64,000 nucleotides of DNA from Deltaproteobacteria bacterium (GTDB lineage: Bacteria; UBA10199; GCA-002796325; JACPFF01), in the NCBI GenBank assembly GCA_016210045.1, contig JACQUX010000021.1, positions 36,125 through 100,124 on the forward strand. Reading direction: 5' to 3'. The translations under genes and the position numbers were made by a program. Each line of letters begins with the position of its first letter. Positions within the stretch are counted from its first letter, which is position 1. The notes under the pieces were generated by a model. That model did not search any database, was not told where the DNA came from, and saw nothing but the letters and a program-made list of their open reading frames with translations. Positions 17,329 to 64,000 of this stretch are shown one piece after another.

Positions 17329-17332
17329 ATGT

Positions 17333-18566: not shown

Positions 18567-18578
18567 GGTCGTCCCCCA

Positions 18579-20263: not shown

Positions 20264-20374
20264 TCGCGTTCGCCCCACCAGAGGTCGCTGCATCCCATCG
20301 TGTCATTCTTACTGCAATGGCGCGACCTCATCCATGGCAAATGTCAGGCATCGCAAAAACAAGCTATGCACGGT

Positions 20375-34610: not shown

Positions 34611-34632
34611 CCACATTATATAAGGAGGCAAT

Positions 34633-35751: not shown

Positions 35752-35761
35752 ATTACTGTAT

Positions 35762-36940: not shown

Positions 36941-37053
36941 AGGAAAAGCCTATAACATCCATTATAAATATTCAATATTAAATTTGGCCACTCCTCCAAG
37001 ATGGTTGCCGGAGACACTCTGAGCGTGTATTGATGATCGTGCACCGCTAACGC

Positions 37054-37956: not shown

Positions 37957-37960
37957 ACAC

Positions 37961-38953: not shown

Positions 38954-39726
38954 TGCCCGCACTTCTCGACATCGCCCATTGCACGATGCGCTTCGGAGGC
39001 CTCACTGCGCTCGCCGATTTCAACGTGCAACTCGCTGCCGGCGCACTCATCGGCATCATCGGGCCAAACGGCGCCGGCAAGACCACGCTGTTCAATATCC
39101 TCACCGGCGTCTATCCGCCGACCGAAGGCACTATCACGTTTCAACAACAGGCCATCGCGGGACTCGCGCCACATCAAATCAACCGCCTCGGGATCGCGCG
39201 GACCTTTCAAAATATTCGGCTGTTCGGTGACTTGACCGTCTTGGAAAATATTACCGTCGCGATGCATCGCCGGATGCACAGCAACCTGTGGGGCGTGGCC
39301 CGCAGCAGCCGCCGCGCGCGCGCCGAGACGGAGACGATCGTCGCCGAGGCCACGACGCTGCTCGATCGCTTCGGCCTCGCCGCGCAAGCACCGCATCAAG
39401 CGCGCTCCCTCCCGTACGGCGACCAACGCCGTTTGGAAATCGCGCGCGCGCTTGCCACCCAACCGCAGCTGCTGCTGCTCGACGAGCCCGCAGCCGGGAT
39501 GAATCCGACCGAAAAAAACGAATTGATCGGCCTGATTCGCTCGCTGCACGCCGACGGTTTGGGCATCATTCTGGTGGAGCACGACATGCACGTCGTGATG
39601 ACCCTCTGTCCGCAATTGATCGTCCTCGATTACGGCGTCACGATCGCCCACGGCACGCCGACGGAGATCCGCCAAAATCCCAAAGTGATCGAGGCCTATT
39701 TAGGAGAGCCGTATCATGAGGTATAA
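38953..39726 (+). CDS. livG: Branched-chain amino acid ABC ATPase
   Basis: GPNGAGKTT, ARTFQNIRLF, LPYGDQRRLEIARALA, LLDEPAAGMNP; ATG overlaps the livM stop. Confidence 0.95.
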   Translation: MPALLDIAHCTMRFGGLTALADFNVQLAAGALIGIIGPNGAGKTTLFNILTGVYPPTEGTITFQQQAIAGLAPHQINRLGIARTFQNIRLFGDLTVLENITVAMHRRMHSNLWGVARSSRRARAETETIVAEATTLLDRFGLAAQAPHQARSLPYGDQRRLEIARALATQPQLLLLDEPAAGMNPTEKNELIGLIRSLHADGLGIILVEHDMHVVMTLCPQLIVLDYGVTIAHGTPTEIRQNPKVIEAYLGEPYHEV

Positions 39727-39732
39727 GCGGCT

Positions 39733-40449
<717 letters not shown>

Positions 40450-40676
40450 ACCAACCATCCTTACATGACGCTCGCTGGCTAATTTAAACTTGCCGCAGGA
40501 TCACCCACTCTGCGCGTTTTGCAGAGAAAAACACCCGCGCATTCCATTGTAGGACTCCTCCTACAGACTGCACGCATTCGATAAAGCACGGTTTTTTCGA
40601 CACTCCCCATGGCACTCGACTTGCTCAACATCCAGGCTGGAGTGGTGTGGACCCTTACATGGGGCTGGGGGGGACT

Positions 40677-43600
40677 GTGACAACACGAACGATTAGGAAT
40701 CACAGCAACGATCGGGGACAAACGCCCTACTCTGCTTTCATAGGAGCCGCCCTCACCCTGCTCCTGTCAGCCTGCGGACCGATCACATTGAACACCACCA
40801 GTACCACAACCGAAACCACCGCCACTACATCCGGCGACCTCACGATCAGTGGAGCCTTTGAAATCCCCCGCACCGCCAATCCGGCGTTGCACCGCAAGCA
40901 GGTAACGACGCGCCCGCGCTGGGTCAAGAGCACCGACGAAACGTCCGCGACGGGCGTCTGCGCGCTGCTCGATGCGCAATTCAGGAGCATCGCGTCGGTC
41001 GCGACCGACAGCGACGGCCGCTATCGCTTCTCTATCAACACGACTGACATCATCGATGGGCACAACGAGCAAAGCGGTGGCCGGCTGACGGCGCATGTCC
41101 GCTGTACGACCGGCGCGACGACAACGCAACATCCGATCATCGCCATGGTCTCGGTCTCCGACACGTCCACGGCCGTCACCACGGCCATCGCGGCCGGGGC
41201 CTCGCCGCTGGAAGATTTGCGCACGAACACCGGTTCCACCACGACGAGTTTACTCCTCTACCAGGGGAGTCAGACGGAGAGCGGCGCCCACTTCAACCCC
41301 CTCACGGCGGATGCCACCACCGCCCCGGCACCGCTCGCGGGGATCGGCTCCGTGCTGAAATTAGCGGCCAATGCCATCACCGTGACCGACGCGAGCCAAA
41401 CGAATGGTGCCAGTGCCGCAATGGCTCGGAAGGCCGTCGATGCGAACGCGGAGACCAGCCTCGCGGCCAACACCGCGGATGAGAGCGTGAACTTCCTGCA
41501 AACGGTCGTGGCTGCCTTGAACACCGGCGAGACGTTGACCGATGGCACGTCGCCGTTTGATGTCCTCGCGCGTCTCACCGACCCGGACGCCGTCGACGAG
41601 TCGTTGTTGGCGACGATCGTGTCCACGCTGCGCGACCGCCAGATTGCGACCACGGCCGCACAAATCCGGTCCGCCTCGACCCTCCTGCAAGACGTCCGGC
41701 AGACATTGACCGTGTTGTCCGAGAGTCCGCAGATCCTCACTGCGCTCGATGACGACCCCGATGCGGCCGCGTTGGCGGTTGGCGGCATCCTGAAAGGGAG
41801 CACGGGGACCATGATGCGGCAGCTGACGGCCAATGACACACTCATCAATGTCATCATGACGATGGCGTCCCAGGTCCAGACCCCGGCGAAGGGGGGCGGC
41901 AACAGCATGACGGCACTCCTCAACGGTTTCGGCGATTTGATTCAGCCGGAGACGGTCGTCGCCGCGGCGGCGAATTCGGACGTGGCACAAAGCATCAACG
42001 CCATCGTGATGAGGACATTAAATAACGCCGCGGGGATCGACACGCGCGTCACCAAGTCGCTCGGCGAGGGACTACAGGCCAAGGCGACCGACGCCGCATT
42101 CTGGGAGACCTTTACCGCGGGCGAATTCGTGGACGCGACGAAGATCGACAACTTCGTGGATTTCTTCGACGTCTCCGCCCAGCAGAATCTGTTCGACACG
42201 GATACCAGCGACGGCCAAATGATCGACTGGAACGCCCTCCTCAGTACCGTCGATTATTCAGTCGACTATGCGGCGCTCGACGCCGGCGATTTTTCGGGAC
42301 TGACCGACGACTGGTTCACGAGCGCCACGGTTGAGTACGATCTGGCCTCCTGCACGTTCAGCGGCGGCGACTGGTGCGGCGGCAGCCCTGGTTGGCAATG
42401 GCAATGCGGTTGTGACGACTACTGCACGACACGGGGCGATTGCTGCAGCGACAAGGTCGCGACCTGCGGCGAAAACACCTACGTCCACTGGCTCATCCAA
42501 TGGGGATACGATCCGGCCGATGCCAACGGCATCGCGATGGGGACGACGCAGGATAGCGATGGTGATTTGGTCGTCGATAGCAACGACAACTGTCTCTACG
42601 ACTACAATCCGGACCAGGCCGATGACGACAGCAACGGGATCGGCAATATCTGCCAAGACTCGGACCACGACGGGGTACGGGACCTGGCGGACAATTGCCC
42701 CGCGCTCGCAAACGGCGGACAATACGACTCCGACTACGACGGCATCGGCAACGCGTGCGACGACGACGCGGCACTCGCGGATACCGACAGCGACGGCGTC
42801 GCCGACGACACCGACAACTGCCCGAATGCGGAGAACGCGGACCAGGCCGACTTCGACGGCGACGGCAGCGGCGACACTTGCGACCCCGACGCGGACGGCG
42901 ACTTAGCCTATGACACGTACGACAACTGCCCGACGTTGGCCAACGAACAAACCGATACCGACTGGGACGGATTGGGCAATGCCTGTGACGAGGATGACGA
43001 CGGCGACGAGTTGCATGATCAGTATGACAACTGCCCGATCGTCGACAATGCCGACCAGGCCGACCTTGACGGCGACGGGGACGGCGATGCGTGTGAGAAC
43101 GATAGCGATGGCGACGGCGTCGAGGACGTAGCCGACAACTGCGTCGACACCGTGAACGCGGATCAGGCCGATATCGACTGGGATGGCGCGGGCGATGGCT
43201 GCGACGCCGACATCGACAACGATAGCGTACCAAACGACGAGGACAATTGCCGAGACACCTCCAACATCGGCGAATCCAGCTGGGTGATGGATGGGGACGG
43301 CAATTGGCAATTGGTCAGCGATCCCCAAACCGATACCGATACGGACGGGATCGGGGATGCGTGCGATGACGACACGGATGGCGATGCCGTTCCCAATACA
43401 CTCGACAATTGTCCGCTCCTGGAAAACACCGAACAAGCCGACCGCGACGCAGACGGCGAGGGCGATCTCTGCGACGATGCCGACTCCGACAACCTGGCCG
43501 ACAACATCGACAATTGCCCTGAGAGCTGGAACAGCGACCAGACCGATACGGATAGCGACGGCGACGGCGACGCCTGCGATGACGACGACGACGCCGATGG

Positions 43601-46600
43601 GGTAGCTGACGAAGGCGACAACTGCGCGCTCATCGGCAACGAGGATCAGACCGACACCGACAGCGATGGCCAAGGAGACGATTGCGACAGCGATGTGGAC
43701 GGCGACGGCTATGCGAATGCGGCGGACAACTGTCCTGCCGCATACAATGATCAAAGCAATACGAACGTCTTTGAAGACACGAGATTCTACGACACGGACT
43801 CCGCTCCCCAAACGGCCGTACGCGCGGATTTCAACGAGGACGGCGCAGTAGATTTGGCCGTCGGCAACTTTGACGCCGCGAGCCTCTCGCTCTTCTGGGG
43901 ATGGTTCTCCTGGCAAATGACTCCTGCGGATGCGATCCCGCTCTCGGATGCACCGACGGATCTCTTCGCGCAGGACCTCAACAACGACGCACATGTCGAC
44001 CTGTTGATCATCTATGGCGCGGCGGGATCGAACCGCATGGAGTTTCGCCCCGGCAACGGCGATGGCTCATTCGGGGCGGAGACGGTGTACACGTCGGATC
44101 AGGTCCATCAATTCATGACCCCGAATTTGGCGGACCTGGATGGCGATGGGGATGCCGACCTCGTCGTGATGGACCTGGAAACGAACGACCTGCTGATCAT
44201 GCCCAACGATGGCGACGGGGCGTTCGATACCAGCAACGCCGTCCGCTATCCGTTAGACGCCGCACCGGCCGTGCTGACGGCAGATGTCGACGCGGACGGC
44301 CTGACGGACGTCGTCGCGAATTACAATGACCACATCGGGGTGTTGCGGAATCTCGGCGATGGCACTCTCGACAGCGTTGTCGCGTCCGGCAGCTTCAGCG
44401 GCTTAACGGAGTTGATCGCCGCCGATTTTAACCCGGACGGGGCAATCGACTTGATCGGCATGGACAATGGAAGCGTCGTGCTGCTCCGCAATGACGGCAC
44501 GGGCACCTTCGGCGAGGCCGAAGTCCTCGTGACGCCGACGTATCTCAGCAGCTTTGCCGTTGGCGACATCAATAGTGACAGCGCACTCGATCTTGTAACG
44601 GGATATCTCTGGACCGCGACCATCACCGTGGCCCTGGGGAATGGCGATGGCACGGTGACGGGCGTGGGGTTCATTGAGAACGGCGATAATTTACACCCCT
44701 ATCGCCTCCAACTTGCCGACTTCGATAGTGACGACGAGACGGATCTGCTCGCCATCAATCGCGAAAACAGTTCGATCACGATCGCACGAAATTTCGGCGA
44801 TGCCATCGGCGATGCCTGCGACGACTCCGATGAAGACGGTCTGATGGATGATGTCGACAATTGCCGCACCGTCACGAATGTCGATCAACTCAACTACGAC
44901 AGCGATACCGAAGGCAATGCCTGCGACACCGATGATGACGACGATGAGATCATTGATGACTGGGACAACTGCGCCACCGTGGCGAATGCCGAGCAAACCG
45001 ACACCGACAGCGACGGCGCCGGCGACTTGTGCGATTGGCTCAGCCGATCCGAATCGTGGTGGACGATCACTGAGACCTCTCCGAATAGTGGCGCGACGCT
45101 CGCCAATACCCTCGTCGTCTTTACCGCAGCGGAATATATGCCGGACAGCGCGTACGACAGCACCCCGGTCGCCACGTTCACTGGGACCTCCATATTGACC
45201 GGGGAGACGTGGATTGACATTCGTGTCGAATATCCCTCCCTCTGCAGTGCAACGCTCTATCACGACGACGACACGACCTCGGAACTCAGCTGCGGATACT
45301 ATAGTGGCGATACCGAATACTTCAGTCTCTCGGGCAACTTTGCGGAAGACGTCGATTATCTGATCCTCAATCACAATACCGATGCCGACAACGACGGGCT
45401 CTACGCGTGGCAAGACAATTGTCCCTATGCCGTCAACGGTGACCAGGCCGATTACGACAGCGATGCGCTCGGCGACGCGTGCGACGACTATGACAGCGAT
45501 GGGGTCATGGACGATGTCGACAATTGTCGGGAGATCACCAATATCGATCAAGAAGACGACAACGCCAATGACGTTGGGGACTACTGCGAAGATCTGAACG
45601 AGAATGGCACTACGGACGGGAATGAAGACTCGGATGCGGACGGCGTCGATGACTTACATGACGCGCTGCCGGCGGATGACACGGAATATGCAGACACGGA
45701 CAACGACGGTACTGGTGACACGGCCGACACGGACGACGACGACGACACCGTCGCAGACACTGACGACAACTGTGTCTTGGCGGCCAACAGCGATCAGGCA
45801 GATACGAACGGAAATGGCGTGGGCAATGCCTGCGAACCGTCGGCACTGACCGGCCTGATGATCTGGTTGAACCTCGACAGCAACTACTTTTCGAACGACG
45901 GCGATCTGCTCAGCGCAATGGCCGACTACTCGGGCAATTCGCTCCACGCCTGGATGCCGGAGGTGGGCTCACGTCCGACCTTTGCGACCAATGCCATTAA
46001 TGGACATCCAGCCGTGCGCTTCGACGGCATCGACGATTGGCTGCTCATTTATAACACGTCCGCACTCGCAACACCGATTGTCGATATGTTCGTCGTGATG
46101 GCCGCGACAGGCGACGCCACAAATGACCCGGTGCTGTACGTCCCCGACGACGAGACCGATTACGATACTTGGAGTTTCGGCCACGTCTCCGATGGCGTGG
46201 TCTGGGCGAATGCCAACACACGCGAAGAAAGTGCATGGACCAGTGCCGCGGCGGCAGAGCCCGCACTGTACAACTTTGAAACGGCCACGCACAATGTGCG
46301 GCATAACGGCGTTCAAATCCTCGATGCGACCGGCGGAACCGTGCTCACCTCCGCGTCGCCCCCGTTGATCATTGGTACCGACTTCGAAAACTACTTACAG
46401 GGCGACATCGCCGAAGTGATGCTCTTCAATCGCACGTTGAGCACAAGCGAGCGCCGCTCGTTAGAATGCTACCTCAGCGAGAAATACGAACTCGGCATCA
46501 GTTTCTGCAACGACGATGAGGATGACGTCTGGAACGCCGTGGACAATTGCCCGCGCACGACCAATGCCGGTCAGGACGACATGGACAGCGACGGCCTCGG

Positions 46601-49600
46601 CGACGATTGCGACAGCGATATGGACGGCGATTGGACCGAGGATGTCAGCGACAATTGTCCGGGACTCGCGAATCCGACACAGGCCGACGGCGACTGCGAC
46701 GGCCTCGGCGATGACTGCGATCCAGAGAGCCTCACCGTGACCACGGCCGATACGCACGGCATGGTCTCTGCCGACTCGGGCAATATTACGGCCTGCCGGA
46801 ATGGCGATGCCAGTACGTGCGACGATACATTCGTGTACGGAAGCAGTGTCTCGCTCACGGCCACGCCCGACGCCGGTTACGTGTTTGCCGGTTGGACCGG
46901 CGATTGTTCAGGCTTCTCGACATGCGATCTCACGATGGACGGCACTAAAGCGGTCAGCGCATCGTTCGTCGATCCCAGCAACTTGGTGCTCTTCGCGTCA
47001 CGTCGCAACTTGAACGGCGATCCGTCAAGCGCGTCGGGATATTATAATATCTGGGCCGCGTCGTCGGATGGCAGCGTGATGACGACGATCACGAATCTCA
47101 CGCTGGCGAATGCGCAGTCCCCACAATTTTCTCCGGATGGGACCAAGATTCTCTTTGTGTCCAATCGCAGCATTACGGAGCCCTACCCTGATGAGCCGCT
47201 CGCCGTCTCGAATACCTACAACCTCTGGCTGATGGACCCGGACGGCACCAATGCCGCACCGCTGACGCAGCTGACGGCGGCGGATACCAGTTGCTATCAT
47301 CCGCGCTGGTCGCCGGATGGGACAAAAATCATTTACACGTCGCTGCAGGCCCTGGATGGAACGGATGTCGTCGATCCGAGCGGTATCGAAAATGTGTGGG
47401 TCATCAACAGCGATGGCACGGGTCGTACGCCACTCACAACGAACGCCGCTTCGTATACGGACAATCAGGAACCGGAGTGGTCGCCGGACGGTGCGCAGAT
47501 CGTCTTTTTCTCGCGCCGCGCATTGAATGGCGACGACGCGAATGCCGGCGTCTACAATCTCTGGCTGATGGGGAGTGATGGCACCAATCCCCAGCCGTTA
47601 ACCACGTTGACGGGTGCGAACGCGCATAACTACTACGCGGCCTGGGCGCCCGATGGGACGACGATCTATTACCGATCGCTTGCCGACATCAGCGGCAGCG
47701 ACAATATGGGTGCCTCAGCCAACATCTGGTCGATTGCGGTGGGTGGGACAAACCGCGTTGCGCTGACCACCTTTAATGGCGCCTCGCTGGACATTGATGC
47801 ACGCGCCCCTGCGATCTCTCCGAACGGCACTTACATTGCGTTTGTTACCAATCAACAGATTGCCGATCCAGCCACTGGCGGCGGCAGCCAAAATATCTGG
47901 GTCATGGAGAGCGACGGCAGCAACGCCACGCCATTAACCACGTTGACTGGAACCGGCGAGCCGCACACGGGAAATCCGCAGTGGTCACCCGACGGGTTGC
48001 AGATCGCGTATGAGTCCGATGGCCACTTAGACGGTTCCGATGCGGCGAATGCCGAGTATACGCCGAACATTTGGATCATGAATAACGATGGCACGGGGAA
48101 ATTGCCGCTCAGCAATGCAACCGGCGATTATGTCGCGGGCGCCGATTCACCGCAGTGGAACAGCTACGACGCAAATGATTTGGATCGGGACCACGCTGAC
48201 GACAGCACCGACAATTGCGCCGGTCTGTGGAACTACAACCAACTCGACAGCGACAGCGACGGCAGCGGCAATGCGTGCGAGACCGACGATGATAACGACA
48301 CCATAACCGATGCCAGCGACAATTGCCCGCTGCTCAACAACGCCGATCAGGCCGACTTCGATAGCGACGGCACCGGCGACGCCTGCGACAGCGACGCGGA
48401 CGGCGACAGCGTGGCGGATTCGATCGACAACTGTCTCGGCCTCAATGATGCGGATCAAGGCGACAGCGATGGCGACGGCGAAGGCGACCCCTGCGATGTC
48501 GACGACGACGGCGACTCGATCACCGATGTCGGCGACGTCTGCCCGAACGTGTCCGATGTCGCTCAGGCCGATGCCGACACCGACGGCGTCGGCGACGCGT
48601 GTGATCTGAACGCCAGCGTTGCGCCGGCCTTGTGGTTGCGTGCCGATGCAGGGATCACCAAGGACGGCAGCAACCTGGTCAGCATCTGGAAGGACCAGAG
48701 CGGCAACGACTACAATGCCGCGCCCACCGTCGATCCCGAGCTGTGGGTCGACGCCCAACTGGGTGGCAAACCAGTGATCCGCTTCGACGGCTCGACTGCG
48801 GAAGGCGGCTATCAGTCGACGTTGACCTCCGCGTTGACCAGCCCCTACACCATCATCTCCGTGCATGCGATCAACGCCTATCACAATTATGGCGCCGTCT
48901 ATTATATTGCCGACAGCAGCTTTGGCATCCTGACCGGCACCGACGCGGAAGTCCCATGGACCCGCCTCACGAATAATCCGAGCCAACCGACCCTTGCGAT
49001 TGGCGAGACCGGCTATCACCTCATGACTACGGTGCATTACGATGAAGCGGCCGCCACCTACGCCATCGATACAGTCTCCCTCTCCACCAGCGACTATGGC
49101 GGAGCGAACACCCTCACTGGTCTGTGCATCGGCGGGGCGTGCGGCGGCATGACCATGGATGGCGATATCGCAGAAATCCTCGTTTTCCCCGGTGCGCTCT
49201 CGACCGCGGATCGCGCGGCCGTCGTGTGCAACTTGAGCGACAAGTACAGCTTCGGCACCACCGGCTGCACCGATGACGACGCGGACGGCGTCCGTGAGGC
49301 GGCCGACAACTGTCCGACCGATGCCAATCCGAGCCAGACCGACACCGACGAAGACGGCGAGGGCAACAGCTGTGACACCGACGATGACAACGACGGCACG
49401 CTGGACGATGACGACGCCTTCCCGCTCGATGCGGCGGAGACGCTGGACACCGACGGCGACGCCATCGGCAACAACGCGGATCTGGACGATGATGGCGACG
49501 GCACCGACGACGGCAGCGACAACTGCCCGCTGGTGGCCAACGCGGATCAAGCCGATGCCAATGGCGACAGCACCGGCAACACTTGCGATTTCGATAGCGA

Positions 49601-52600
49601 CTCCGACGGCGACGGGTACATCGACGCCTACGACGCCTTTGCGGATAATGTCCTGGAGCACCTGGATACGGACGGCGATAGCGACGGCGACAACGGGGAC
49701 ACCGACGACGACGGCGACACCGTGGCGGATACCACAGACAATTGTTGGTTTGTCTCGAACCTCGACCAGACGGACACCGATGCCGACGGCCTCGGGGATG
49801 CCTGTGAACTCTCCGCGGTAGGCACCAAGACCCTGTGGCTCCGGGCCAGCGACCTCACGAGCTTGAGTGATGGCGACCCGGTCTCGACCTGGACCGATGC
49901 CTCCGGTGCCGGCAACGACGCCACCCAAACCACCGAAGAGCGCCGCCCGACCTTCCGCACCAATGTCGTCGGCGGCAAACCGGTCATCCGTTTCGATGAA
50001 TTCGATGACGGGCTATCGATCGCCGACAGCGCCACATACAAGACACCGGTCGTACAACTCGTCCTCGTGGCCAAGTCGACGAGTTCAGGCCGCACCCTGA
50101 TCGGCTACCCGCACGATACCACGCACACCGATCCATATTACCGGTGGTCTTTCGGGCATGCCGGTTCGGACGCCATCAATTTGCGGATCGGGTCGAACTT
50201 CGAAGACACCACGGCCAACGCCGGTTGGGCCGATATGGGGCTCTATGCCTACGAGACCGAGACCCGCAATGTCTACCACAACGGCACGCTCTTTTACCAA
50301 GGGACCTCGGGGGAGGCCGTCACCTACCCGAACGCCACCGGCCTCCGGATCGGATACAACGCGGACGGCCTGGAAAACCTCACCGGGGACATCGCGGAGA
50401 TCTTGCTCTTCGATCAGGCCTTGACGGCGCTGGAACGACGGACGGTCACCTGCGCCCTCAGCACCGAATATACACTCGGTCTCCCCGATTGCGATGACGA
50501 CCTCGACCATGTCGCCAACGGCACGGACAATTGCGGCGCGGCCGACAACCCGGATCAAGCCGACTTCGATGGCGACTCGATCGGCGACGCCTGCGACGAT
50601 GATGAAGATGGCGATTCCGTCACGAACGACAACGATAACTGCCTCAGCCTCGTCAACAGCGACCAGGCCAACAGCGACGACGACGCCTCCGGCGACGCGT
50701 GCGACAGCGACGACGACGGCGATAGCGTCGCGGACGGTTCCGACAACTGCCCGCTGCTGGCAAATGCGAGCCAGACGGACACCGACGCCGATACAATCGG
50801 CGATGATTGCGATCTGGATCTGACGCCCGCCCTGTGGCTCCGCGCGGACGGCGGCGTCACAAAAGACGGATCGGGATATGTCAGTCTCTGGAAAGACCAG
50901 ACCAGCCTCAGCAACGACGTGACAGAGGATAGCAGCGATTGGCAACCGCAACGCATCGACGGCGCAGTGAATAGCCTCCCAGCGCTGCGTTTCGACGGGA
51001 TCGATGATCGTCTCGAGACCGCCACCGCCCTGTTCCTGGGGAACGATTCACGCAGCCTGTTCGCGGTCTATAAGCCGACGAACGATTGGCAAGACGGGTC
51101 CATGACGACGGTCGCCGGACAGGGTGGACCGACCGACGCGGATACGCAATTCCTCCTCCAGTCGAATCCGCTGGGTGATCCGTACCTGGCGTGGGGGATG
51201 AGTGGTCTGTCCGGTCCGGAGCGGACTACGGCCTGGAAGATCGGCAGCGCCGACTTCGACAATTCATCGGGCACCGTCCGCCTCTTCAAAGACGGCACCC
51301 TGCTCACCTCCGATACGAAAACGTTCAACACCAACGACACCCCCTTCGTCATCGGCACGAAGTACGCCAGCTGGAGTTATTCGGAATTCTTCGACGGGGA
51401 TATCGCCGAAGTCCTGGTCTTCGGGGGCACACTCACGGATGCCGACCGGAACGCCGTCGAATGTTACTTGAGCGACAAGTATGCCCTCGCCCTCACGGGG
51501 TGTGATGACGGCGATCTGGACGGCCTCCGGGCAGCCTTAGACAACTGCCCGAACGATGCCAATGCGGGTCAGGAAGACGCCGACTCGGACGGCGATGGAG
51601 ATGCCTGCGACACCGACATCGATAACGACGGGGCACTCAACGCCGACGACGCCTTCCCGTACGACGCCGGCGAGACACTCGACACGGACGGCGACGGCGA
51701 CGGCAATAACCTCGACACCGACGATGACGGCGACACGAGCGCCGACGGGAGCGACAATTGTCCGCTCGTGCCGAACCAAGGGCAGGAGGATACGGATACC
51801 GATGGAACCGGCGACGCCTGCGAGACGTACACCCCGGCGCTCCTCGATACGACGTTCGACACCGACGGCATCGCCAGCATCGACGCAACGGATGAAGATC
51901 AAGCCGATAGTCCGACCGATGTCGTCGTCCAATCCGACGGCAAGGTCCTCACCGTCGGATATGGCCCCACGACCGGCGGCAACTACGACTGGCTCCTCAC
52001 CAATTTCAACACCGACGGGAGCCTCAACACGAGTTTCAATACGAGCGGCCTGCTCCGCTTCCCCGTCGGCAGCGGCAACGAGGAGGCACACGGCGTGGCA
52101 CTGCAGTCGGACGGCAAGATCATCGTGGCCGGACACACCATGGCCGACGATTGGGATTACGCCCTCGCCCGCTTCAACGCGGACGGCACGATCGACACGA
52201 TGTTCGGGATCGACGGCATCGCCACCGGTGACTTGGTCGGACCCAGCGACCACGATTACGTCCAAGACGTCGTCGTCGACGCCAGCGACCGGATTGTGAT
52301 CGCCGGCACGACCGGCGGATACTTGACCGTTGCGCGCTTCATGCCGACCGGCGATTTAGACTTCGGCTTCGCCGACGGCGGTGTTTTCCAGGCAACGGCG
52401 TATTCAATGACGGCGCAGGGCATCGCCCTCGATGCCAACAATGAGCAGATCTATCTGGCCGGCATCGAATATTCTAGTGCAGACGAGGCCTGGGAATTTG
52501 CGGTCACTTGCCTCGACTTCAACGGCAACGAGTGCGCCGGCTTCGGCACGAACGGCCATGCATTAGAACAGATCGGGACCTACACCGAGGCCGCAGTCGC

Positions 52601-54428
52601 CGACATCCTTGTCCAACCGAACGGCAAGGTCGTCGTGGCCGGCCGCATCCAGGATTTTGGAGTCAATCATCTGGCCGTCGCCCGTTTCACCACGGCTGGG
52701 GCACTGGACACCGGATTCGGTAACAACAACGGGGCCTACGTCCTACCCGACATCGCCACCTTCTATAACACCAGCGCGGCCGACGCCATCGGCCGCCAGA
52801 GCGACGGCTCGCTGGTCGTGGCCGCTCACGCCACCCATGGAGAGGCGTCGTACGCGAAAAGTGTGTTTGCGTTGATCCGTCTCACCTATCAGGGGGAATT
52901 AGACACGTCCTTCGACGACGACGGCATCCTGTTTGCAACTACGGCCGACGGCATAGGTGGCAGTCTGCAAGCCCTCGCGGTGCGCTCCAACGACGCGCTC
53001 GTCGCGTTAGGCACCTCGCGCGTGCCGCACCTCGACGTCTCCGACCCGGAAAATCCGGTCTGGGAGTGGTTGGCCACCGATTCGATCCTCTTCCAATTCG
53101 AGAGCGGCCTGCCGGACAGCGTCGCCGAAGACACCAACGACTATTGCAGCGACACGCTCGATAACGACGCCGACGGCCTGACCGATTGCGATGATAACAA
53201 CTGCATCGGCTCCATCGCGTGCGGCGGCACGGCGGAAGCGGTGGCCTTCACGTCCTATCGCCGACTCGACAGCGCCGACCTCCCCGCCGATCCGCTCGTC
53301 AACAATATCTGGAGCGTCCTCCTCGACGGGACCACCTTGACCCCCGCGACGACGATCACAACGGCCGATGCGCACAGCTATGAACCGCAATGGTCGCCCG
53401 ACGGCACCAAGATCGCATTTTACTCGTCGCGCCACCCCGATGGCAGCGACGCGCTGAACAGTAACTCCATAGCAAACATCTTCGTGATGGATGCGGATGG
53501 CACCAATCTGCTGGCACTCACGGCCACTACGGCCTCCGATACCGGTCATTATCAACCGTCCTGGTCGCCGGATGGGACACAGCTCGCCTTCACCAGCGCC
53601 CAAAATCCGGACGAGAGCAACTCCACCGTCTCCACGCGCAATATCTGGGTCGTCAATGCCGATGGCACCGGGCTCAACGCGCTTACGACGCTCACGAGCT
53701 CCACGGCGCTTTGCTTCACACCACAGTGGTCGCCCGACGGGACCAAGATCCTCTTCAACAGCAACCGCAAACTCGACGGTTCGGACAACCTCACCGACAA
53801 CGGGAATTATAACATCTGGACCGTCGACGCGGACGGCACCGACCCGACGCCCCTCGCAGGCATCGATGTCTCAGCGATCCAACAACAAGATGCGCAGTGG
53901 TCGCCCGACGGAACCGAGATTGTCTTCGTGTCCAATCGCGACATCGACGGATCCGCCGCCCTCAGTCCGAACGGGGCCTATAACCTCTTCGTCATGAACG
54001 CGGATGGAACGGGCTTGACCGCGTTGACCACGACGGAACTCGACGGGGCCGTGCTCCATATGGATCCGCAATGGTCGCCGGATGGCACCAAGATCGTCTT
54101 CGACTCGACGCGGGTGTTGGACGGCTCCGACGCCGCGCTGAACGGCGGCGCAACGATGAACCTGTGGGTCATCAATGCCGATGGGACCAGCCTCACACCA
54201 CTGACCACATCTACCGACGATGGGATCACGAGCGGTCTCCCGCGATGGTCATCTGATGGGGCGTGGATCGTGTTCCAATCGCAGCTCAACCCCGACGATC
54301 CGACGTCGAGCCACGTCAACCCCTCGTGGAACATCTGGGTCATCCAGGCCGGCGGGACCGGATTGGCGCCGCTCACAACGGTCCGCGACGAGTCGATGGA
54401 CAATGAATCCAGCGACCCGTTACCATAA
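40677..54428 (+). CDS. Giant (~4580 aa) multidomain surface lipoprotein/adhesin: N-terminal module, somatomedin-B-like domain, TSP3 repeats, FG-GAP/VCBS repeats, four LamG/ConA-like domains, InlB-B-like repeat, two PD40/TolB-like propellers, delta-60-like repeats
   Basis: Lipobox LLLSAC; DxDxDGxxDxxDNC repeats; DFNxDGxxDL repeats; PQWSPDGxKI repeats; LDTxFxxxG/QxDGKIxVAG repeats; WLxAD..GDIAE(I/V)L repeats. GTG 40677 preferred because the paralogue also begins MTTRT after a G-rich RBS. Confidence 0.9.
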   Translation: MTTRTIRNHSNDRGQTPYSAFIGAALTLLLSACGPITLNTTSTTTETTATTSGDLTISGAFEIPRTANPALHRKQVTTRPRWVKSTDETSATGVCALLDAQFRSIASVATDSDGRYRFSINTTDIIDGHNEQSGGRLTAHVRCTTGATTTQHPIIAMVSVSDTSTAVTTAIAAGASPLEDLRTNTGSTTTSLLLYQGSQTESGAHFNPLTADATTAPAPLAGIGSVLKLAANAITVTDASQTNGASAAMARKAVDANAETSLAANTADESVNFLQTVVAALNTGETLTDGTSPFDVLARLTDPDAVDESLLATIVSTLRDRQIATTAAQIRSASTLLQDVRQTLTVLSESPQILTALDDDPDAAALAVGGILKGSTGTMMRQLTANDTLINVIMTMASQVQTPAKGGGNSMTALLNGFGDLIQPETVVAAAANSDVAQSINAIVMRTLNNAAGIDTRVTKSLGEGLQAKATDAAFWETFTAGEFVDATKIDNFVDFFDVSAQQNLFDTDTSDGQMIDWNALLSTVDYSVDYAALDAGDFSGLTDDWFTSATVEYDLASCTFSGGDWCGGSPGWQWQCGCDDYCTTRGDCCSDKVATCGENTYVHWLIQWGYDPADANGIAMGTTQDSDGDLVVDSNDNCLYDYNPDQADDDSNGIGNICQDSDHDGVRDLADNCPALANGGQYDSDYDGIGNACDDDAALADTDSDGVADDTDNCPNAENADQADFDGDGSGDTCDPDADGDLAYDTYDNCPTLANEQTDTDWDGLGNACDEDDDGDELHDQYDNCPIVDNADQADLDGDGDGDACENDSDGDGVEDVADNCVDTVNADQADIDWDGAGDGCDADIDNDSVPNDEDNCRDTSNIGESSWVMDGDGNWQLVSDPQTDTDTDGIGDACDDDTDGDAVPNTLDNCPLLENTEQADRDADGEGDLCDDADSDNLADNIDNCPESWNSDQTDTDSDGDGDACDDDDDADGVADEGDNCALIGNEDQTDTDSDGQGDDCDSDVDGDGYANAADNCPAAYNDQSNTNVFEDTRFYDTDSAPQTAVRADFNEDGAVDLAVGNFDAASLSLFWGWFSWQMTPADAIPLSDAPTDLFAQDLNNDAHVDLLIIYGAAGSNRMEFRPGNGDGSFGAETVYTSDQVHQFMTPNLADLDGDGDADLVVMDLETNDLLIMPNDGDGAFDTSNAVRYPLDAAPAVLTADVDADGLTDVVANYNDHIGVLRNLGDGTLDSVVASGSFSGLTELIAADFNPDGAIDLIGMDNGSVVLLRNDGTGTFGEAEVLVTPTYLSSFAVGDINSDSALDLVTGYLWTATITVALGNGDGTVTGVGFIENGDNLHPYRLQLADFDSDDETDLLAINRENSSITIARNFGDAIGDACDDSDEDGLMDDVDNCRTVTNVDQLNYDSDTEGNACDTDDDDDEIIDDWDNCATVANAEQTDTDSDGAGDLCDWLSRSESWWTITETSPNSGATLANTLVVFTAAEYMPDSAYDSTPVATFTGTSILTGETWIDIRVEYPSLCSATLYHDDDTTSELSCGYYSGDTEYFSLSGNFAEDVDYLILNHNTDADNDGLYAWQDNCPYAVNGDQADYDSDALGDACDDYDSDGVMDDVDNCREITNIDQEDDNANDVGDYCEDLNENGTTDGNEDSDADGVDDLHDALPADDTEYADTDNDGTGDTADTDDDDDTVADTDDNCVLAANSDQADTNGNGVGNACEPSALTGLMIWLNLDSNYFSNDGDLLSAMADYSGNSLHAWMPEVGSRPTFATNAINGHPAVRFDGIDDWLLIYNTSALATPIVDMFVVMAATGDATNDPVLYVPDDETDYDTWSFGHVSDGVVWANANTREESAWTSAAAAEPALYNFETATHNVRHNGVQILDATGGTVLTSASPPLIIGTDFENYLQGDIAEVMLFNRTLSTSERRSLECYLSEKYELGISFCNDDEDDVWNAVDNCPRTTNAGQDDMDSDGLGDDCDSDMDGDWTEDVSDNCPGLANPTQADGDCDGLGDDCDPESLTVTTADTHGMVSADSGNITACRNGDASTCDDTFVYGSSVSLTATPDAGYVFAGWTGDCSGFSTCDLTMDGTKAVSASFVDPSNLVLFASRRNLNGDPSSASGYYNIWAASSDGSVMTTITNLTLANAQSPQFSPDGTKILFVSNRSITEPYPDEPLAVSNTYNLWLMDPDGTNAAPLTQLTAADTSCYHPRWSPDGTKIIYTSLQALDGTDVVDPSGIENVWVINSDGTGRTPLTTNAASYTDNQEPEWSPDGAQIVFFSRRALNGDDANAGVYNLWLMGSDGTNPQPLTTLTGANAHNYYAAWAPDGTTIYYRSLADISGSDNMGASANIWSIAVGGTNRVALTTFNGASLDIDARAPAISPNGTYIAFVTNQQIADPATGGGSQNIWVMESDGSNATPLTTLTGTGEPHTGNPQWSPDGLQIAYESDGHLDGSDAANAEYTPNIWIMNNDGTGKLPLSNATGDYVAGADSPQWNSYDANDLDRDHADDSTDNCAGLWNYNQLDSDSDGSGNACETDDDNDTITDASDNCPLLNNADQADFDSDGTGDACDSDADGDSVADSIDNCLGLNDADQGDSDGDGEGDPCDVDDDGDSITDVGDVCPNVSDVAQADADTDGVGDACDLNASVAPALWLRADAGITKDGSNLVSIWKDQSGNDYNAAPTVDPELWVDAQLGGKPVIRFDGSTAEGGYQSTLTSALTSPYTIISVHAINAYHNYGAVYYIADSSFGILTGTDAEVPWTRLTNNPSQPTLAIGETGYHLMTTVHYDEAAATYAIDTVSLSTSDYGGANTLTGLCIGGACGGMTMDGDIAEILVFPGALSTADRAAVVCNLSDKYSFGTTGCTDDDADGVREAADNCPTDANPSQTDTDEDGEGNSCDTDDDNDGTLDDDDAFPLDAAETLDTDGDAIGNNADLDDDGDGTDDGSDNCPLVANADQADANGDSTGNTCDFDSDSDGDGYIDAYDAFADNVLEHLDTDGDSDGDNGDTDDDGDTVADTTDNCWFVSNLDQTDTDADGLGDACELSAVGTKTLWLRASDLTSLSDGDPVSTWTDASGAGNDATQTTEERRPTFRTNVVGGKPVIRFDEFDDGLSIADSATYKTPVVQLVLVAKSTSSGRTLIGYPHDTTHTDPYYRWSFGHAGSDAINLRIGSNFEDTTANAGWADMGLYAYETETRNVYHNGTLFYQGTSGEAVTYPNATGLRIGYNADGLENLTGDIAEILLFDQALTALERRTVTCALSTEYTLGLPDCDDDLDHVANGTDNCGAADNPDQADFDGDSIGDACDDDEDGDSVTNDNDNCLSLVNSDQANSDDDASGDACDSDDDGDSVADGSDNCPLLANASQTDTDADTIGDDCDLDLTPALWLRADGGVTKDGSGYVSLWKDQTSLSNDVTEDSSDWQPQRIDGAVNSLPALRFDGIDDRLETATALFLGNDSRSLFAVYKPTNDWQDGSMTTVAGQGGPTDADTQFLLQSNPLGDPYLAWGMSGLSGPERTTAWKIGSADFDNSSGTVRLFKDGTLLTSDTKTFNTNDTPFVIGTKYASWSYSEFFDGDIAEVLVFGGTLTDADRNAVECYLSDKYALALTGCDDGDLDGLRAALDNCPNDANAGQEDADSDGDGDACDTDIDNDGALNADDAFPYDAGETLDTDGDGDGNNLDTDDDGDTSADGSDNCPLVPNQGQEDTDTDGTGDACETYTPALLDTTFDTDGIASIDATDEDQADSPTDVVVQSDGKVLTVGYGPTTGGNYDWLLTNFNTDGSLNTSFNTSGLLRFPVGSGNEEAHGVALQSDGKIIVAGHTMADDWDYALARFNADGTIDTMFGIDGIATGDLVGPSDHDYVQDVVVDASDRIVIAGTTGGYLTVARFMPTGDLDFGFADGGVFQATAYSMTAQGIALDANNEQIYLAGIEYSSADEAWEFAVTCLDFNGNECAGFGTNGHALEQIGTYTEAAVADILVQPNGKVVVAGRIQDFGVNHLAVARFTTAGALDTGFGNNNGAYVLPDIATFYNTSAADAIGRQSDGSLVVAAHATHGEASYAKSVFALIRLTYQGELDTSFDDDGILFATTADGIGGSLQALAVRSNDALVALGTSRVPHLDVSDPENPVWEWLATDSILFQFESGLPDSVAEDTNDYCSDTLDNDADGLTDCDDNNCIGSIACGGTAEAVAFTSYRRLDSADLPADPLVNNIWSVLLDGTTLTPATTITTADAHSYEPQWSPDGTKIAFYSSRHPDGSDALNSNSIANIFVMDADGTNLLALTATTASDTGHYQPSWSPDGTQLAFTSAQNPDESNSTVSTRNIWVVNADGTGLNALTTLTSSTALCFTPQWSPDGTKILFNSNRKLDGSDNLTDNGNYNIWTVDADGTDPTPLAGIDVSAIQQQDAQWSPDGTEIVFVSNRDIDGSAALSPNGAYNLFVMNADGTGLTALTTTELDGAVLHMDPQWSPDGTKIVFDSTRVLDGSDAALNGGATMNLWVINADGTSLTPLTTSTDDGITSGLPRWSSDGAWIVFQSQLNPDDPTSSHVNPSWNIWVIQAGGTGLAPLTTVRDESMDNESSDPLP

Positions 54429-54447
54429 AGAGGTGCGCACTGGCGGC

Positions 54448-54720
54448 ATGAGAAAATTTTGGTTCATATTGGGACTCTGCGGCCTGCTCGCGAGTGTCGC
54501 GGGCTGCAAGGCCGTGGTCACGGAGCCCGATGGCGGCACGACACTCGGCGGCTCGGATTCCGAATTGGGTGGCGCCGGCGCGACCGGCACCGATCAAGAA
54601 AATACCGACGACGGCGGGGAAGTCGTCCCCACGGGAGGAACGCCCACGCCGATCCCGATCGAACTCCCCGGCGCCAGCGAATACGATCGCTCCACCTTCG
54701 ACGCGACCACGATGGAGTAA
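54448..54720 (+). CDS. Small acidic lipoprotein
   Basis: MRKFWFILGLCGLLASVAG|C signal; GAGG RBS; lies between the two giant genes. Confidence 0.7.
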   Translation: MRKFWFILGLCGLLASVAGCKAVVTEPDGGTTLGGSDSELGGAGATGTDQENTDDGGEVVPTGGTPTPIPIELPGASEYDRSTFDATTME

Positions 54721-54942
54721 TTTCCGCGCCCGCATAATGAACACTCGCTGTCGCCCATCAGGTCAATAAGCACTCGATCGCTGCACCACGTGGTAAGCAG
54801 ACACTCCCTGTTTCGTCTGTCAGACAATTCCTACACGCGGAGGTATTGAATCGGGCATGGTATTTTGCCCGCCGCGGGTGGCCGTTCGCTTGCATTGGCA
54901 ACTGGGGTGAGTCTCAGCCCGCATCGGGCCAGGGGGGGCACT

Positions 54943-57900
54943 ATGACAACACGGACCCGCGCTGTTCAGTTGACGTGGTGGCTGGCCATCGGCATTCTCC
55001 TCCCCGCGTGCGGCGCGATTACCGCGAACGCCCCGGCGACCACCAGCACGAACCCCAACGGCATCACGATCACCGGGACCTTCACCCTGCCGACCGGCAC
55101 GCTTGCCGACCTCGGCGCCGGCACGGCGGCCGTGCGCAAGGCCGCGGGCGGCGCCTCGCACAAGGCCGCGACAACCGTCAGCCTCAGCGAAACGGCCGTC
55201 GCCGTTGGCACCTGTGAACTCCTCGACAGCACGTTCGCGGTCCTCGACACGGCCGCGACGCAGGCCGACGGCACCTTTGCGTTCGACGTGCCCCACCTCG
55301 CTGCGCTCCGCGATACGACAAACACGGACGACGCCGCGACGCTCTGCTTTCACCTCCGTTGCGCCGTCGCCACCCCGGACGGGGACCCGATTACGGAAGT
55401 GGCCAGTCATTGCCTCGATCGCGCCACCACGGAAACGGCCTTGCTGGATGCCGACCCCGCCACGGCCCCGCTCGCGGACCTCCCCGTCTCCAACGCGTCG
55501 AGTGTCACCAGCGTACTCGCCTACGCCGACACCGCCTTCAACCCGCTGACCGCCACGGCCGCGACGCCACCGCCGGCCCTGGCCGCGCCGACTCAGTATT
55601 TGCCCGCCCTCGACGCCGCCGTTACTATCGCCGCCACGGCCGGCGACGCCACGGCCACGGCCCAGACCGTCGATGGCTCGCTCGCCTTTCTCCTCGCCGC
55701 CACCGCCGCGTTGAATGACGGCACCCCGCTCGCCGATGGGACCGCCCCGGCCGCCGCCATCGCCCAGCTCTTCACGGCCGATGCGACCACCGCCGCCGCC
55801 ACCCTCGACGTCCTGGCCGCGGCTTTGCAGAACACCGACGGGCTCGGCCACACGACCGCCACGACGTTGCGCGCCGTGACCGCGACGACCGAGGACGTCA
55901 CGGCCGCGGTCGGATTGCTGGCCGCGCATCCGAACTTTGCCGCCGCCCCCCGCACCACCACCGCCCTGCTCGTCGGCGGGCTCATCTTGGGGAGCACGCC
56001 CACCGCGCTCCTCCAGATGGTCGCCACCGACACCAGCATCGGCACGCTCGTGACCTTCGCCACCACCGCCGCGACCGCTGCGGCCCCCACCAGCACCACC
56101 GCCGCGACCCAGGCCACGCATCTCAGCGCCCTGTTCGAACCCGCGCTCGTCCTCGCCGCCGCCCGCAATCCCGCCGCGGCCCAGGCCATGACCGCGATGC
56201 TGACCGAAGTGTTTGCCGCCCCCCGCGTCACCACCGCGACCGTCACCGCGCTCGGCAGCGGCCTCACCGCGCAGGCCGCCAATCCCGCCTTCTGGGGCAC
56301 CCTCGCGACCGACACCACCGCCGACGCCACGGCCATCACCCGGCTCGTCGCGTTTGTCGACCAGGCGCACGCCGCGAACGTCGTCGACACCAATGCCGCG
56401 GACGGCACCACCCTCGATTGGGGCCAACTCTTCACCGCCGTCGACCTCCAGACCGACTGGGCGGCCATGGACGCCGCCACCTTTACCGCCCAGACCAGTG
56501 ACTGGATCGAACAGAGCACCCTGCTCTTCAACACGGCCAGTTGCACCTATGCCGGCGGGAATTTCTGCGGCGGGCTGAACGCCGGCGGCAGCTGCGCCTG
56601 CGACGACGATTGCGTGCCGCGCGGCGACTGTTGCCCAGACAAAGTCGCCACCTGCGGCGCCAACACCTGGGCCACGTTCCTGACGACGTGGCAGGTCGAC
56701 GTGAAAGACACGACCCTCTGGAGCACGACCTTCGCCCCGGCCACGGACGCCGACAGCGACGGCGACGGCGTCGCCGATGCCCAGGACAATTGCGGCTGGT
56801 GGTGGAATCCCGACCAGGCCGACGCCGACGGCAACGGCTTCGGGGATGCGTGCAGCGACACCGATCACGACGGCGCGTTCGACGACTGGGACAATTGCCC
56901 CACGACGTGGAATCCCGACCAAGCCAATACCGACTATTGGGCCGACAGCGCCGGCGATGCCTGCGACCTCGATGCCGACGGCGACGGCACTCCGCGGACC
57001 GCCGACAATTGCCCCGGGCTCTACAATCCGGACCAAACGGACAGCGACGACGACGGCCGCGGCGACGCGTGCGATGGCAAAGACACCGACGGCGACGGCT
57101 GGCTCGACAGCTGGGACAACTGCCCGCGCGTGGATAACCCGGACCAAATGAATACGGATTATTGGGCCGATGCCGACGGCGATGCCTGTGACGCCGATGA
57201 TGACGGCGACGCGGTCGCCGACACGCACGACAACTGCCCCGTCTATTGGAATGCCGACCAGACCGACACCGACGACGACGGCGAGGGTGATTGGTGCGAT
57301 GGGAGCGATAGCGATCAGGACGGCTGGCTCGATCTGTATGACAATTGCGCCACCGCCCCGAACCTCGATCAGGCCGACAGCAACTGGGACGGCGAGGGCG
57401 ATGCCTGCGACAGCGACGACGACGGCGACGGCGTCGCGGACGCGAGTGACAACTGCCGCCTCGCCTGGAACCTCGAGCAAACCGACAGCGATGGCAACGG
57501 GCGCGGCGACGCCTGCGACGGCACCGATACCGACGGCGACGGCTGGATTGACGTCTCCGACAACTGCGACACGGTCAAGAATCCGGACCAGCTCGACAGC
57601 AACTGGGACGGCGAGGGTGATGCCTGCGACAGCGACGACGACGGCGACGGCGTCGCGGACGCCACGGACACATGCCGGTTGGCCTGGAACGCCGATCAAG
57701 CGGACGCGGACGGCAACGGGCTCGGCGATGCCTGCGACGGGACCGATACGGACGGCGACGGCTGGATCGATAGCGCTGACAACTGCGACACGGTCTCGAA
57801 CCTCGATCAAGTGAACACCGACTACTGGGCCGATGCCGCCGGCGATGCCTGCGACGACGATGACGACGGCGACGACGTGGCGGATAGCCACGACACCTGC

Positions 57901-60491: not shown

Positions 60492-60528
60492 ACACACCCC
60501 CAGTTGGATTACCCAACTGGGGGTGTGT
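60492..60528 (+). terminator. Intrinsic-terminator-like hairpin after the second giant gene
   Basis: 16-bp perfect stem ACACACCCCCAGTTGG / CCAACTGGGGGTGTGT, 5-nt loop, followed by CTTGTT. Confidence 0.7.
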
Positions 60529-63700: not shown

Positions 63701-64000
63701 CGTGCTGGAGCGGGACATACGGCGGATCGGCATCGCTTTCCGACGTCCTGACCGCTTGTTCGGGCAGCAAACTGCTCATGGCCTGCCGACCGGTCGGGGA
63801 TGAAAATCTCACGCTGGCGGCCATGGCCCCACGTGCCGATGTGCTCTACGATTGCGGCACGACCAGTAGCTGTTCCAATAACGCCAATGGCGTCGAATGG
63901 TACTATAGCGACTCATATTCATGGGGATTTGCCCAAGGCGGCAGCGCCATCAACCGTAACACATGCGACTACCAGGGCGACGACCCGACGTTACGCATGT
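60724..64000 (+). pseudogene. 5'-truncated TSP3-repeat surface protein gene with an in-frame TGA, running off the window end
   Basis: Frame 1 reads TSP3 repeats from 60724 (after a TGA at 60721) with no start or signal peptide; TGA at 60895-60897 in NCPTI*NN; frame then appears open to 64000 (absent from the ORF track, consistent with no stop before the window end). Confidence 0.7.
62272..63950 (+). repeat. Intragenic tandem duplication (offset 1209 bp) of TSP3 repeats plus a Cys-rich domain
   Basis: AATTGGGAGACG at 62482 and 63691; long identical blocks such as GGATCGGCATCGCTTTCCGACGTCCTGACCGC. Confidence 0.8.

Follow-up and report, generated by a model that had tools for sequence, protein, structure and literature searches.

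Giant surface proteins rich in repeats are widespread, but to our knowledge their anchoring and presentation in Gram-negative bacteria is known for few types, such as the retention modules of type I secretion systems (T1SS), autotransporters, and the C-terminal domains of type IX secretion systems (T9SS). Here, we analyzed a 64,000-nucleotide (nt) stretch of DNA from a Deltaproteobacteria bacterium (assembly GCA_016210045.1, contig JACQUX010000021.1), hereafter the window, which harbors two neighboring genes for predicted giant lipoproteins with a common N-terminal module of ~600 amino acids (aa): gene A (40677–54428, + strand, 4583 aa) and gene B (54943–60474, + strand, 1843 aa, corresponding to public protein P0002). 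Like RTX/LapA adhesins, their products combine giant size, an N-terminal, cell-proximal module, a repetitive stalk predicted to depend on Ca2+, and variable ligand-binding domains. Unlike these adhesins, which are retained by TolC plugging, they carry a lipobox and lack RTX nonapeptides (no HemolysinCabind domain in Pfam scans of A and B), a C-terminal T1SS signal and T1SS genes, the window being devoid of ATP-binding cassette (ABC), membrane fusion protein (MFP) and TolC secretion genes. B carries GBD_T9SS_assoc jelly rolls but matches no family of T9SS C-terminal sorting domains (Por_Secre_tail type), and both A and B end without one. Long DxDxDGxxDxxD runs, in gene A flanking concanavalin-type (LamG-like) domains, are shared with thrombospondin and COMP, from which A and B differ by their predicted lipid anchoring and by the lack of a coiled-coil oligomerization domain, EGF repeats, and the thrombospondin C-terminal domain. 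Lipobox-anchored multidomain proteins with Ca2+ modules of the thrombospondin type 3 (TSP3) and the cadherin-like kind have been described in Saccharophagus degradans (PMC2386152). The surface enzymes of this organism resemble A and B in combining a lipid anchor, TSP3 repeats, and modular, exchangeable domains, but their glycoside hydrolase and carbohydrate-binding (CBM) modules directly follow the lipobox, without the base of sandwich, helical domain, and somatomedin-B (SMB) knot described below (PMC2386152). As judged from their sequences, A and B are best accounted for as a new family that falls within an already known class, that of giant modular proteins of the surface or matrix-like type.

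The N-terminal modules of A (aa 1–598, 40677–42470) and B (aa 1–572, 54943–56658) align end to end with 35–38% identity. BLASTP of residues 282–698 of A against B, a range including the first TSP3 repeats, yielded an E-value of 9e-73, the initial ~200 aa alone reached 1e-14, and a tblastn comparison of the modules stripped of the SMB knot and TSP3 repeats still gave 1e-51. An earlier note, made from the letters of this DNA, had proposed that two neighboring giant lipoproteins share such a module and had listed seven motifs common to both; all seven are present as conserved alignment blocks (I.G.F..P, G.C.LLD..F, FNPLTA, FL....AALN.G..L.DGT.P, AFW.T, DG..DW...VD...DW, and CxCDDxCxxRGDCCxDKVATCG), and the proposal thus holds over the full module length. 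A chance likeness arising from Ala/Thr-rich composition was ruled out by independent homologues with E-values of 1e-24 to 1e-92, by the conserved motifs, and by covarying cysteines. A third paralogue of the module within the window was likewise ruled out, as tblastn finds A and B only. The shared N-module is a real conserved unit that lacks a Pfam or NCBIfam model.

Both proteins begin with MTTRT, followed by a lipobox and a Thr-rich linker, in agreement with the earlier description. Gene B starts with ATG at 54943, and gene A with GTG at 40677, so that a straight translation reads VTTRT, equivalent to MTTRT with an initiating formyl-methionine. The public call for gene A (P0001, 4546 aa) begins 37 codons 3′ of this GTG and therefore lacks a signal peptide. 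We favor the earlier start because of the homology with gene B and the wider family and because of a kept G7 run, which is common to both genes and lies 4–5 nt 5′ of the gene A start; the public call is corrected accordingly. The predicted lipoprotein signal peptide of A (40677–40775, + strand) ends in the lipobox LLSAC (L-S-A-C) with Cys33, which is canonical with respect to [LVI][ASTVI][GAS]C. The signal peptide of B (54943–55011, + strand), delimited by sequence and by alignment with A, carries the lipobox-like LLPAC (L-P-A-C) with Cys23 and departs from the canonical pattern at position –2 (Pro). Across the family, a canonical lipobox is found in about 11–12 of 14 members, the Cys column is kept in at least 90%, and no member has Asp at position +2. 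The lipobox Cys is followed by a Thr/Ser-rich tether in both proteins, which in A spans aa 34–53 (40776–40835, + strand), is of low complexity, and is modeled with a predicted local distance difference test score (pLDDT) below 50.

To resolve the architecture of the module, AlphaFold models were inspected. The model of A proceeds from a β-sandwich through about 17 helices to the knot; AlphaFold2 returned a pLDDT of 78 and a predicted TM-score (pTM) of 0.79 for the whole module of A with a 14-sequence family alignment, and AlphaFold a pLDDT of 87.8 and a pTM of 0.86 for the helical domain of B alone. The module is acidic, with an isoelectric point of about 4.1–4.3. The all-α domain occupies aa 185–556 in A (41229–42344, + strand) and aa 177–531 in B (55471–56535, + strand), both delimited on the AlphaFold models, and includes the FNPLTA motif (aa 206–211 of A, 41292–41309, + strand), whose residues N207, P208, and L209 are invariant or nearly so in the family alignment; the corresponding N-P-L-(T/S)-A segment comes after a short helix. 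For neither module did the helical domain match anything in Pfam-A or NCBIfam at E ≤ 10, and Pfam searches with 12 homologues were equally negative. Against PDB sequences, profiles built from 2 and from 14 sequences matched the sandwich and the knot only. At E ≤ 1e-3, Foldseek returned nothing from PDB or BFVD when queried with the whole module, nor from PDB when queried with the helical domain alone; helical alignments were obtained only to TALE or designed helical repeats, with TM-scores of 0.1–0.3, and the best PDB TM-score for the helical domain of B remained below 0.2 when query-normalized and at most 0.28 when target-normalized. Internal helical repeats of the HEAT or TALE-like kind were considered and rejected on the basis of these TM-scores and of an hhalign comparison of the two halves (E = 0.16). 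Across Pfam, NCBIfam, PDB, and BFVD, the helical core is uncatalogued and has no relative of solved structure. The family thereby adds a predicted lipid-anchored base with a confidently predicted helical domain that has neither a Pfam or NCBIfam model nor a PDB analogue, and the module lends itself, as a defined target, to structural studies and, through a new hidden Markov model, to annotation.

The view that the N-module cannot be assigned to a known family applies to this helical core, and no Pfam or NCBIfam model matching the N-module was found; it does not extend to the initial ~110 residues, for which sub-threshold β-sandwich matches exist. This sandwich comprises aa 54–163 of A (40836–41165, + strand), as delimited by AlphaFold strands and weak matches to SdrD/UafA B domains, and about aa 40–160 of B (55060–55422, + strand), by alignment to A, and it is characterized by the motif G.C.LLD..F..IA..TD.DG.F.F...D..N.....VRC. 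Pfam matches in homologues stay below threshold (CarboxypepD_reg 18.9 vs 32.3 bits, bMG3 ~20 vs 34.9, Big_6 ~19 vs 27.6). The 2- and 14-sequence profiles retrieved the B domains of SdrD and UafA from PDB with E-values of 0.006–0.013 (SdrD 0.006), and Foldseek aligned the sandwich to UafA and SdrD with E-values of 0.1–0.2. Based on these sub-threshold matches, the sandwich probably falls among the stalk-type Ig-like or prealbumin-like domains, a broad class. This small sandwich, which carries a TD.DG.F motif, finds its closest matches by sequence and fold in the B-repeat stalks of Gram-positive MSCRAMM adhesins (SdrD, UafA) and in CarboxypepD_reg-like sandwiches; the matches are weak (E 0.006–0.1), and it differs from these stalks in being single-copy, membrane-proximal and, in most members, apparently clamped by a disulfide. 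Residues Cys95 and Cys143 of A covary perfectly, with a Cys pair in 9 of 14 members and V plus A/S in the remaining 5; this covariation points to a disulfide and therefore to an oxidizing, non-cytoplasmic compartment.

The module terminates in a predicted SMB-like knot with eight cysteines at aa 558–598 in A (42348–42470, + strand) and aa 533–572 in B (56539–56658, + strand), recognized via sub-threshold Pfam matches, the Cys pattern, and a PDB profile search. A, B, and ten homologues all contain the pattern C-x3-9-C-x7-20-C-x-C-x3-C-x5-CC-x6-C, the eight cysteines being invariant in these 12 members. Pfam Somatomedin_B (PF01033) scores of 18.4 bits for A, 19.6 for B, and 17–21.7 for homologues do not reach the gathering threshold of 23.1 bits. 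A profile of 11 family knots searched against 177,635 PDB sequences gave 11 matches with E-values from 1.3e-3 to 0.045, each of them to a protein with an SMB domain (ENPP1, ENPP3, vitronectin, EndoU, and snake venom phosphodiesterase), with best E-values for ENPP3 (1.3e-3), ENPP1 (1.7e-3), and vitronectin (3.2e-3); residues 3–38 of vitronectin align with the family knot over all eight cysteines. Compared with the animal SMB domains (PF01033; vitronectin, ENPP1-3, EndoU/PP11), the knot has the same eight cysteines, the last six identically spaced (C-x-C-x3-C-x5-CC-x6-C), and a matching CxCD(D/E)xC...DCCxD core. It differs in being bacterial and in closing the base module of a lipoprotein rather than forming the N-terminus of a secreted animal protein, in a longer initial loop in some members (C-x3-9-C), and in having DK in place of the animal D(Y/F). 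The earlier suggestion that the module ends in an SMB-like domain is hence borne out by the Cys pattern and by the exclusively SMB-type PDB matches, and the family knot is best described as a divergent but genuine SMB domain with a predicted disulfide pattern. Its presence places an SMB-type knot in bacteria, the domain being otherwise known from animal extracellular proteins, and no report of bacterial SMB domains or of the N-module was found in the literature searched. The RGD sequence within the knot was rejected as an integrin-type motif: other members have RGN, RND, QGD, YGD, or FDD at this position, and RGD also occurs inside the SMB domain of ENPP3.

Related knots were also encountered outside the family. 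The closest of these relatives exceed the Pfam SMB threshold, with 27.3 bits for a protein on contig L011, 28 for P0027, 34.6 for P0028, and 42.1 for P0025. The first of these, encoded at 6598–8406 (+ strand) of a high-GC metagenome contig, is a bacterial-type, lipoprotein-like protein of 602 aa in which the SMB domain precedes a DUF4185 match (37.6 bits vs a threshold of 39.5). As it passes the Pfam threshold, SMB domains are therefore also present in bacterial secreted proteins outside the module family. Four small SMB proteins stood among the matches listed in protein similarity searches with the A module, the 14-sequence alignment, and the knot region.

The extent of the family was determined with HMMER, using a two-sequence (A and B) profile in an exhaustive search of 1.84 billion cluster representatives at E ≤ 1e-3. 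This search yielded 28 proteins, of which 13 have a full or near-full module, namely A, B, and P0003–P0013 (the latter at 1e-24 to 1e-92); the others comprise modules without a knot (P0014, P0016), one fragment, and sandwich-only or SMB-knot-only matches. Ten family clusters were looked up, each containing one or two members that all stem from metagenome-assembled genomes (MAGs) or metagenome assemblies. An initial metagenome scan gave no match to the module family, and profile scans of genome contigs gave a single locus, L001, a contig of a groundwater MAG labeled Deltaproteobacteria that carries P0004; further members lie on metagenome contigs. With about 13 clusters among 1.84 billion proteins, and uncultured organisms as their only source, the family is extremely rare, which restricts its general importance. 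Pairwise identities range from 15 to 45%, with about five subgroups. A and B are mutual closest relatives (35%), barely closer to each other than to P0003 and P0004, and the duplication that gave rise to them is therefore old.

Domain composition downstream of the module varies widely. TSP3 repeats alone follow it in P0004, P0007, P0009, P0010, and P0013, TSP3 with a cadherin-like domain and FG-GAP_2 in P0003, Big_9, Calx-beta, and TSP3 in P0011, and TSP3 with Cys-rich segments in P0008, while in P0016 FG-GAP_2 follows directly, without knot or TSP3. The idea of a constant base with swappable C-termini is thus supported at the level of architecture; homologues with an invariant C-terminus, which the earlier note had named as an observation that would speak against it, were not what we found. 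Domain shuffling on a constant base is clearly evidenced. Nothing follows the module in P0006 (581 aa), P0005 (721 aa), and P0014 (495 aa), the last of which also lacks the knot; together with P0016, it indicates that the knot is not obligatory to the module.

Because such stand-alone members exist, the module probably has a function of its own. It might be read as a functional head, ligand-binding or catalytic, that works alone at the membrane, with stalks and tips as optional accessories. We consider this a tentative alternative and rather an unlikely one. P0006, P0005, and P0014 end just after or before the knot, no TSP3 gene lies beside the stand-alone P0006, and the helical domain is predicted to be compact (pTM 0.86); the long stalks that follow the module in 9 of 13 members, and its invariably N-terminal position beside the lipid anchor, correspond instead to the position of a base. 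Residues N207-P208-L209, D127, R142, and P424 are strongly conserved and do not look structural, which would speak for such a head, but neither a match to a catalytic family nor a conserved His/Ser/Cys/Glu constellation beyond the structural cysteines was detected. Pfam scans of A and B did not reveal a catalytic domain in their downstream parts either.

These downstream parts are dominated by TSP3 repeats. TSP_3 (PF02412, threshold 25 bits) scores 457.6 bits over 22 stretches in A and 377.5 bits over 18 in B, with E-values across both proteins of 1e-115 to 1e-141. In A, TSP3 stretches are interspersed with other domains over 42471–54428 (+ strand, Pfam scans), comprising an FG-GAP propeller (~aa 1037–1370), four LamG-like domains, an InlB-B-repeat-like domain, two PD40 propellers, and a DUF5122 propeller; the corresponding Pfam families are TSP_3, FG-GAP_3 (1.7e-28), Laminin_G_3, Flg_new_2, PD40, and DUF5122 (a delta-60-type propeller). 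In B, a stalk of about 18 or more TSP3 repeats (56659–58929, + strand; Pfam and motif counts) leads to four jelly-roll domains (58930–60474, + strand; GBD_T9SS_assoc by Pfam, with a weak likeness to PPC), in which a unit of two domains is duplicated with a period of 783 nt. The duplicated units share about 86% DNA identity over 300 nt, and units 2 and 4 are near-identical as protein, which points to a fairly recent internal duplication. The divergence of A and B after the TSP3 repeats and the domains assigned to A were therefore described correctly from the outset; the tail of B, which had been taken as PPC-like, consists of jelly rolls of the GBD_T9SS_assoc family and matches PPC only weakly.

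Taking module, family, and stalks together, we assign a probability of roughly 55% to the reading that A and B are lipid-anchored, calcium-stiffened adhesin- or matrix-like proteins in which ligand-binding parts are exchanged on a constant base. A and B would descend from an old tandem duplication and belong to a very rare family of bacterial lipoproteins processed by the Sec/Lsp pathway, with an acylated N-terminal Cys as membrane anchor. The membrane in question is most likely the outer one, as Asp does not occur at position +2 in any member. The membrane-proximal base would consist of a flexible Thr/Ser/Gly-rich tether, a stalk-type sandwich that is usually disulfide-clamped, a compact acidic helical domain of ~370 residues, and a knot with four disulfides. 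A Ca2+-binding TSP3 chain would extend from this base, with binding domains specific to each lineage inserted into it or placed at its end (in A, LamG and FG-GAP, PD40, and DUF5122 propellers; in B, jelly rolls of the galactose-binding-like type), and domain shuffling would exchange these ligand-binding parts on the constant base. A base role draws its support from position and comparison: the module stands N-terminally in every member, after the predicted acylated Cys, its predicted disulfides point to a location outside the cytoplasm, domains of extracellular binding type follow downstream, and the C-termini are shuffled. Lipidation, outer-membrane or surface location, Ca2+ dependence, and adhesion are all predictions from sequence.

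Several observations weigh against this reading. Three or four members without stalk or tips, including P0005, P0006, and P0014, are unexplained by a pure base role. The lipobox is not uniformly canonical, with Pro at –2 in gene B and His at –1 in one homologue. The alignment used as AlphaFold input comprised only 14 sequences, and the SMB part of the model is of low confidence (pLDDT 48–70). Periplasmic proteins, too, commonly have PD40 (TolB-like) propellers. No route by which a lipoprotein of 4583 aa might cross the outer membrane for display was identified in our searches, and the sigma-54-type control considered below comes from consensus matching of two sites.

The question of export bears on two further explanations. 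The earlier note had expected a co-occurring export system; none was found in the window or beside three homologues. A dedicated exporter is missing from the window and from the vicinity of the homologues at L001, at L002 and L003 (both of which hold P0006), and at L004. A conserved neighboring exporter was accordingly rejected as a candidate, the neighbors being liv genes in the window and, at the homologue loci, acyl-CoA metabolism or unrelated genes. From the proposed display or secretion platform, the constant N-module and the varied C-termini thus stand, with no export system to go with them; a display or secretion function is putative, and adhesive tips are plausible in view of the domain types present. 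It has to be considered that the module itself serves as a recognition or translocation determinant for a dedicated route exporting outer-membrane lipoproteins to the surface, the helical domain and knot acting as a “handle” that would be retained at the translocon or threaded through it. A constant N-terminus with varying cargo is indeed seen in polymorphic secreted proteins, the proteins are too big to reach the surface unaided, and the family is confined to a narrow set of organisms; the lack of a conserved transporter gene at any of the loci listed above, and the fact that a folded, disulfide-rich domain of ~500 aa is an improbable secretion signal, make this explanation distinctly unlikely.

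We judge it similarly improbable that A and B are periplasm-facing lipoproteins, i.e., envelope scaffolds or Ca2+ buffers instead of surface adhesins. Lipoproteins sorted by the Lol system face the periplasm by default, which, along with the TolB-like PD40 propellers and the missing exporter, would fit such a location. A TSP3 chain of ~4500 aa with LamG, FG-GAP, and galactose-binding-like domains is, in turn, typical of extracellular binding proteins, its size lies far above the width of the periplasm, and TSP3 modules are known from surface and secreted enzymes (PMC2386152). The surface-anchored, adhesin- or matrix-like reading is therefore the one we retain.

A bolder extension of it, which we regard as unlikely, is that the helical domain represents a new fold and makes up, with the N-P-L motif and the SMB knot, a hitherto unknown device by which the cell surface would acquire or keep very large lipoproteins. 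This device might be a plug or handle for an outer-membrane translocon, or, as pure speculation, Asn207-Pro208 might mediate a self-processing reaction that releases the stalk, by analogy to the NPTH autocleavage of FlhB/YscU. If a new export or retention device of this kind existed, the SMB knot of bacteria would also be relevant to how the animal SMB domain arose.

The upstream regions of both genes share a common layout. A perfect palindrome, TGTAGGA-N4-TCCTACA, is located upstream of gene A (40548–40565, + strand), where it is a candidate site for an enhancer-binding protein, and an imperfect one, TGTCAGA-N4-TCCTACA, upstream of gene B (54818–54835, + strand). The palindrome search pattern (TGTnnGA-N4-TCCTACA) was derived from these two sites, so the chance estimate is post hoc. 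Each palindrome is followed by a candidate sigma-54-type –24/–12 element, TGGCAC-N5-TTGC(T) for gene A (40610–40624, + strand; TGGCACTCGACTTGCT from 40610) and TGGCCG-N5-TTGC(A) for gene B (54879–54893, + strand; TGGCCGTTCGCTTGCA from 54879), as matched to the consensus TGGCAC-N5-TTGCW with GG at –24 and GC at –12. The distance from palindrome start to promoter start is 62 nt in A and 61 nt in B, and from promoter start to start codon 67 and 64 nt, respectively. The spacer of neither gene contains a sigma-70-like promoter. We infer sigma-54 control of A and B, which may be switched on together from these promoters via the common upstream palindrome. The 64-kb window does not include a gene for an enhancer-binding activator, and a comparable upstream site was not present at the AT-rich homologue locus L001; the shared layout suggests co-regulation of A and B by an enhancer-binding protein encoded outside the window.

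A complete Liv-type branched-chain amino-acid ABC transporter operon lies 5′ of gene A (liv cluster, 33405–40449), and the remainder of the window consists of housekeeping genes. Two paralogous AAA_14/DUF4143 ATPase genes were noted on the – strand (1629–2801 and 35762–36940), the latter inserted in opposite orientation into the otherwise co-directional liv cluster. Among minus-strand open reading frames (ORFs) without Pfam matches at 16027–21334, one (17598–18566, – strand) encodes a protein of 322 aa with the N_methyl motif of type IV pilins and pseudopilins, and a cluster of the pilus or type II secretion-like kind might include these ORFs. Between A and B, a short ORF (54448–54720, + strand) encodes a predicted lipoprotein of 90 aa with the lipobox LASVAGC and a Gly/Thr/Asp-rich body; it has no Pfam match and no counterpart beside the homologues in L001 or L003. 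Finally, a third TSP3-repeat ORF (60733–64000, + strand) directly follows a terminator-like hairpin of gene B (60510–60525) and runs off the end of the window. It lacks the N-module as well as a start codon with a signal peptide, and is interrupted by an in-frame TGA at ~60895–60897 inside one TSP3 repeat (NCPTI*NNPW); the repeats of B often have Trp at this position. The ORF is probably a decayed or 5′-truncated paralogue, or else reflects an assembly problem in repetitive DNA, and it contains two copies of a Cys-rich domain of ~150 aa (…CWSGTYDGSASLSDVLTACSG…RMCWHTSG…).

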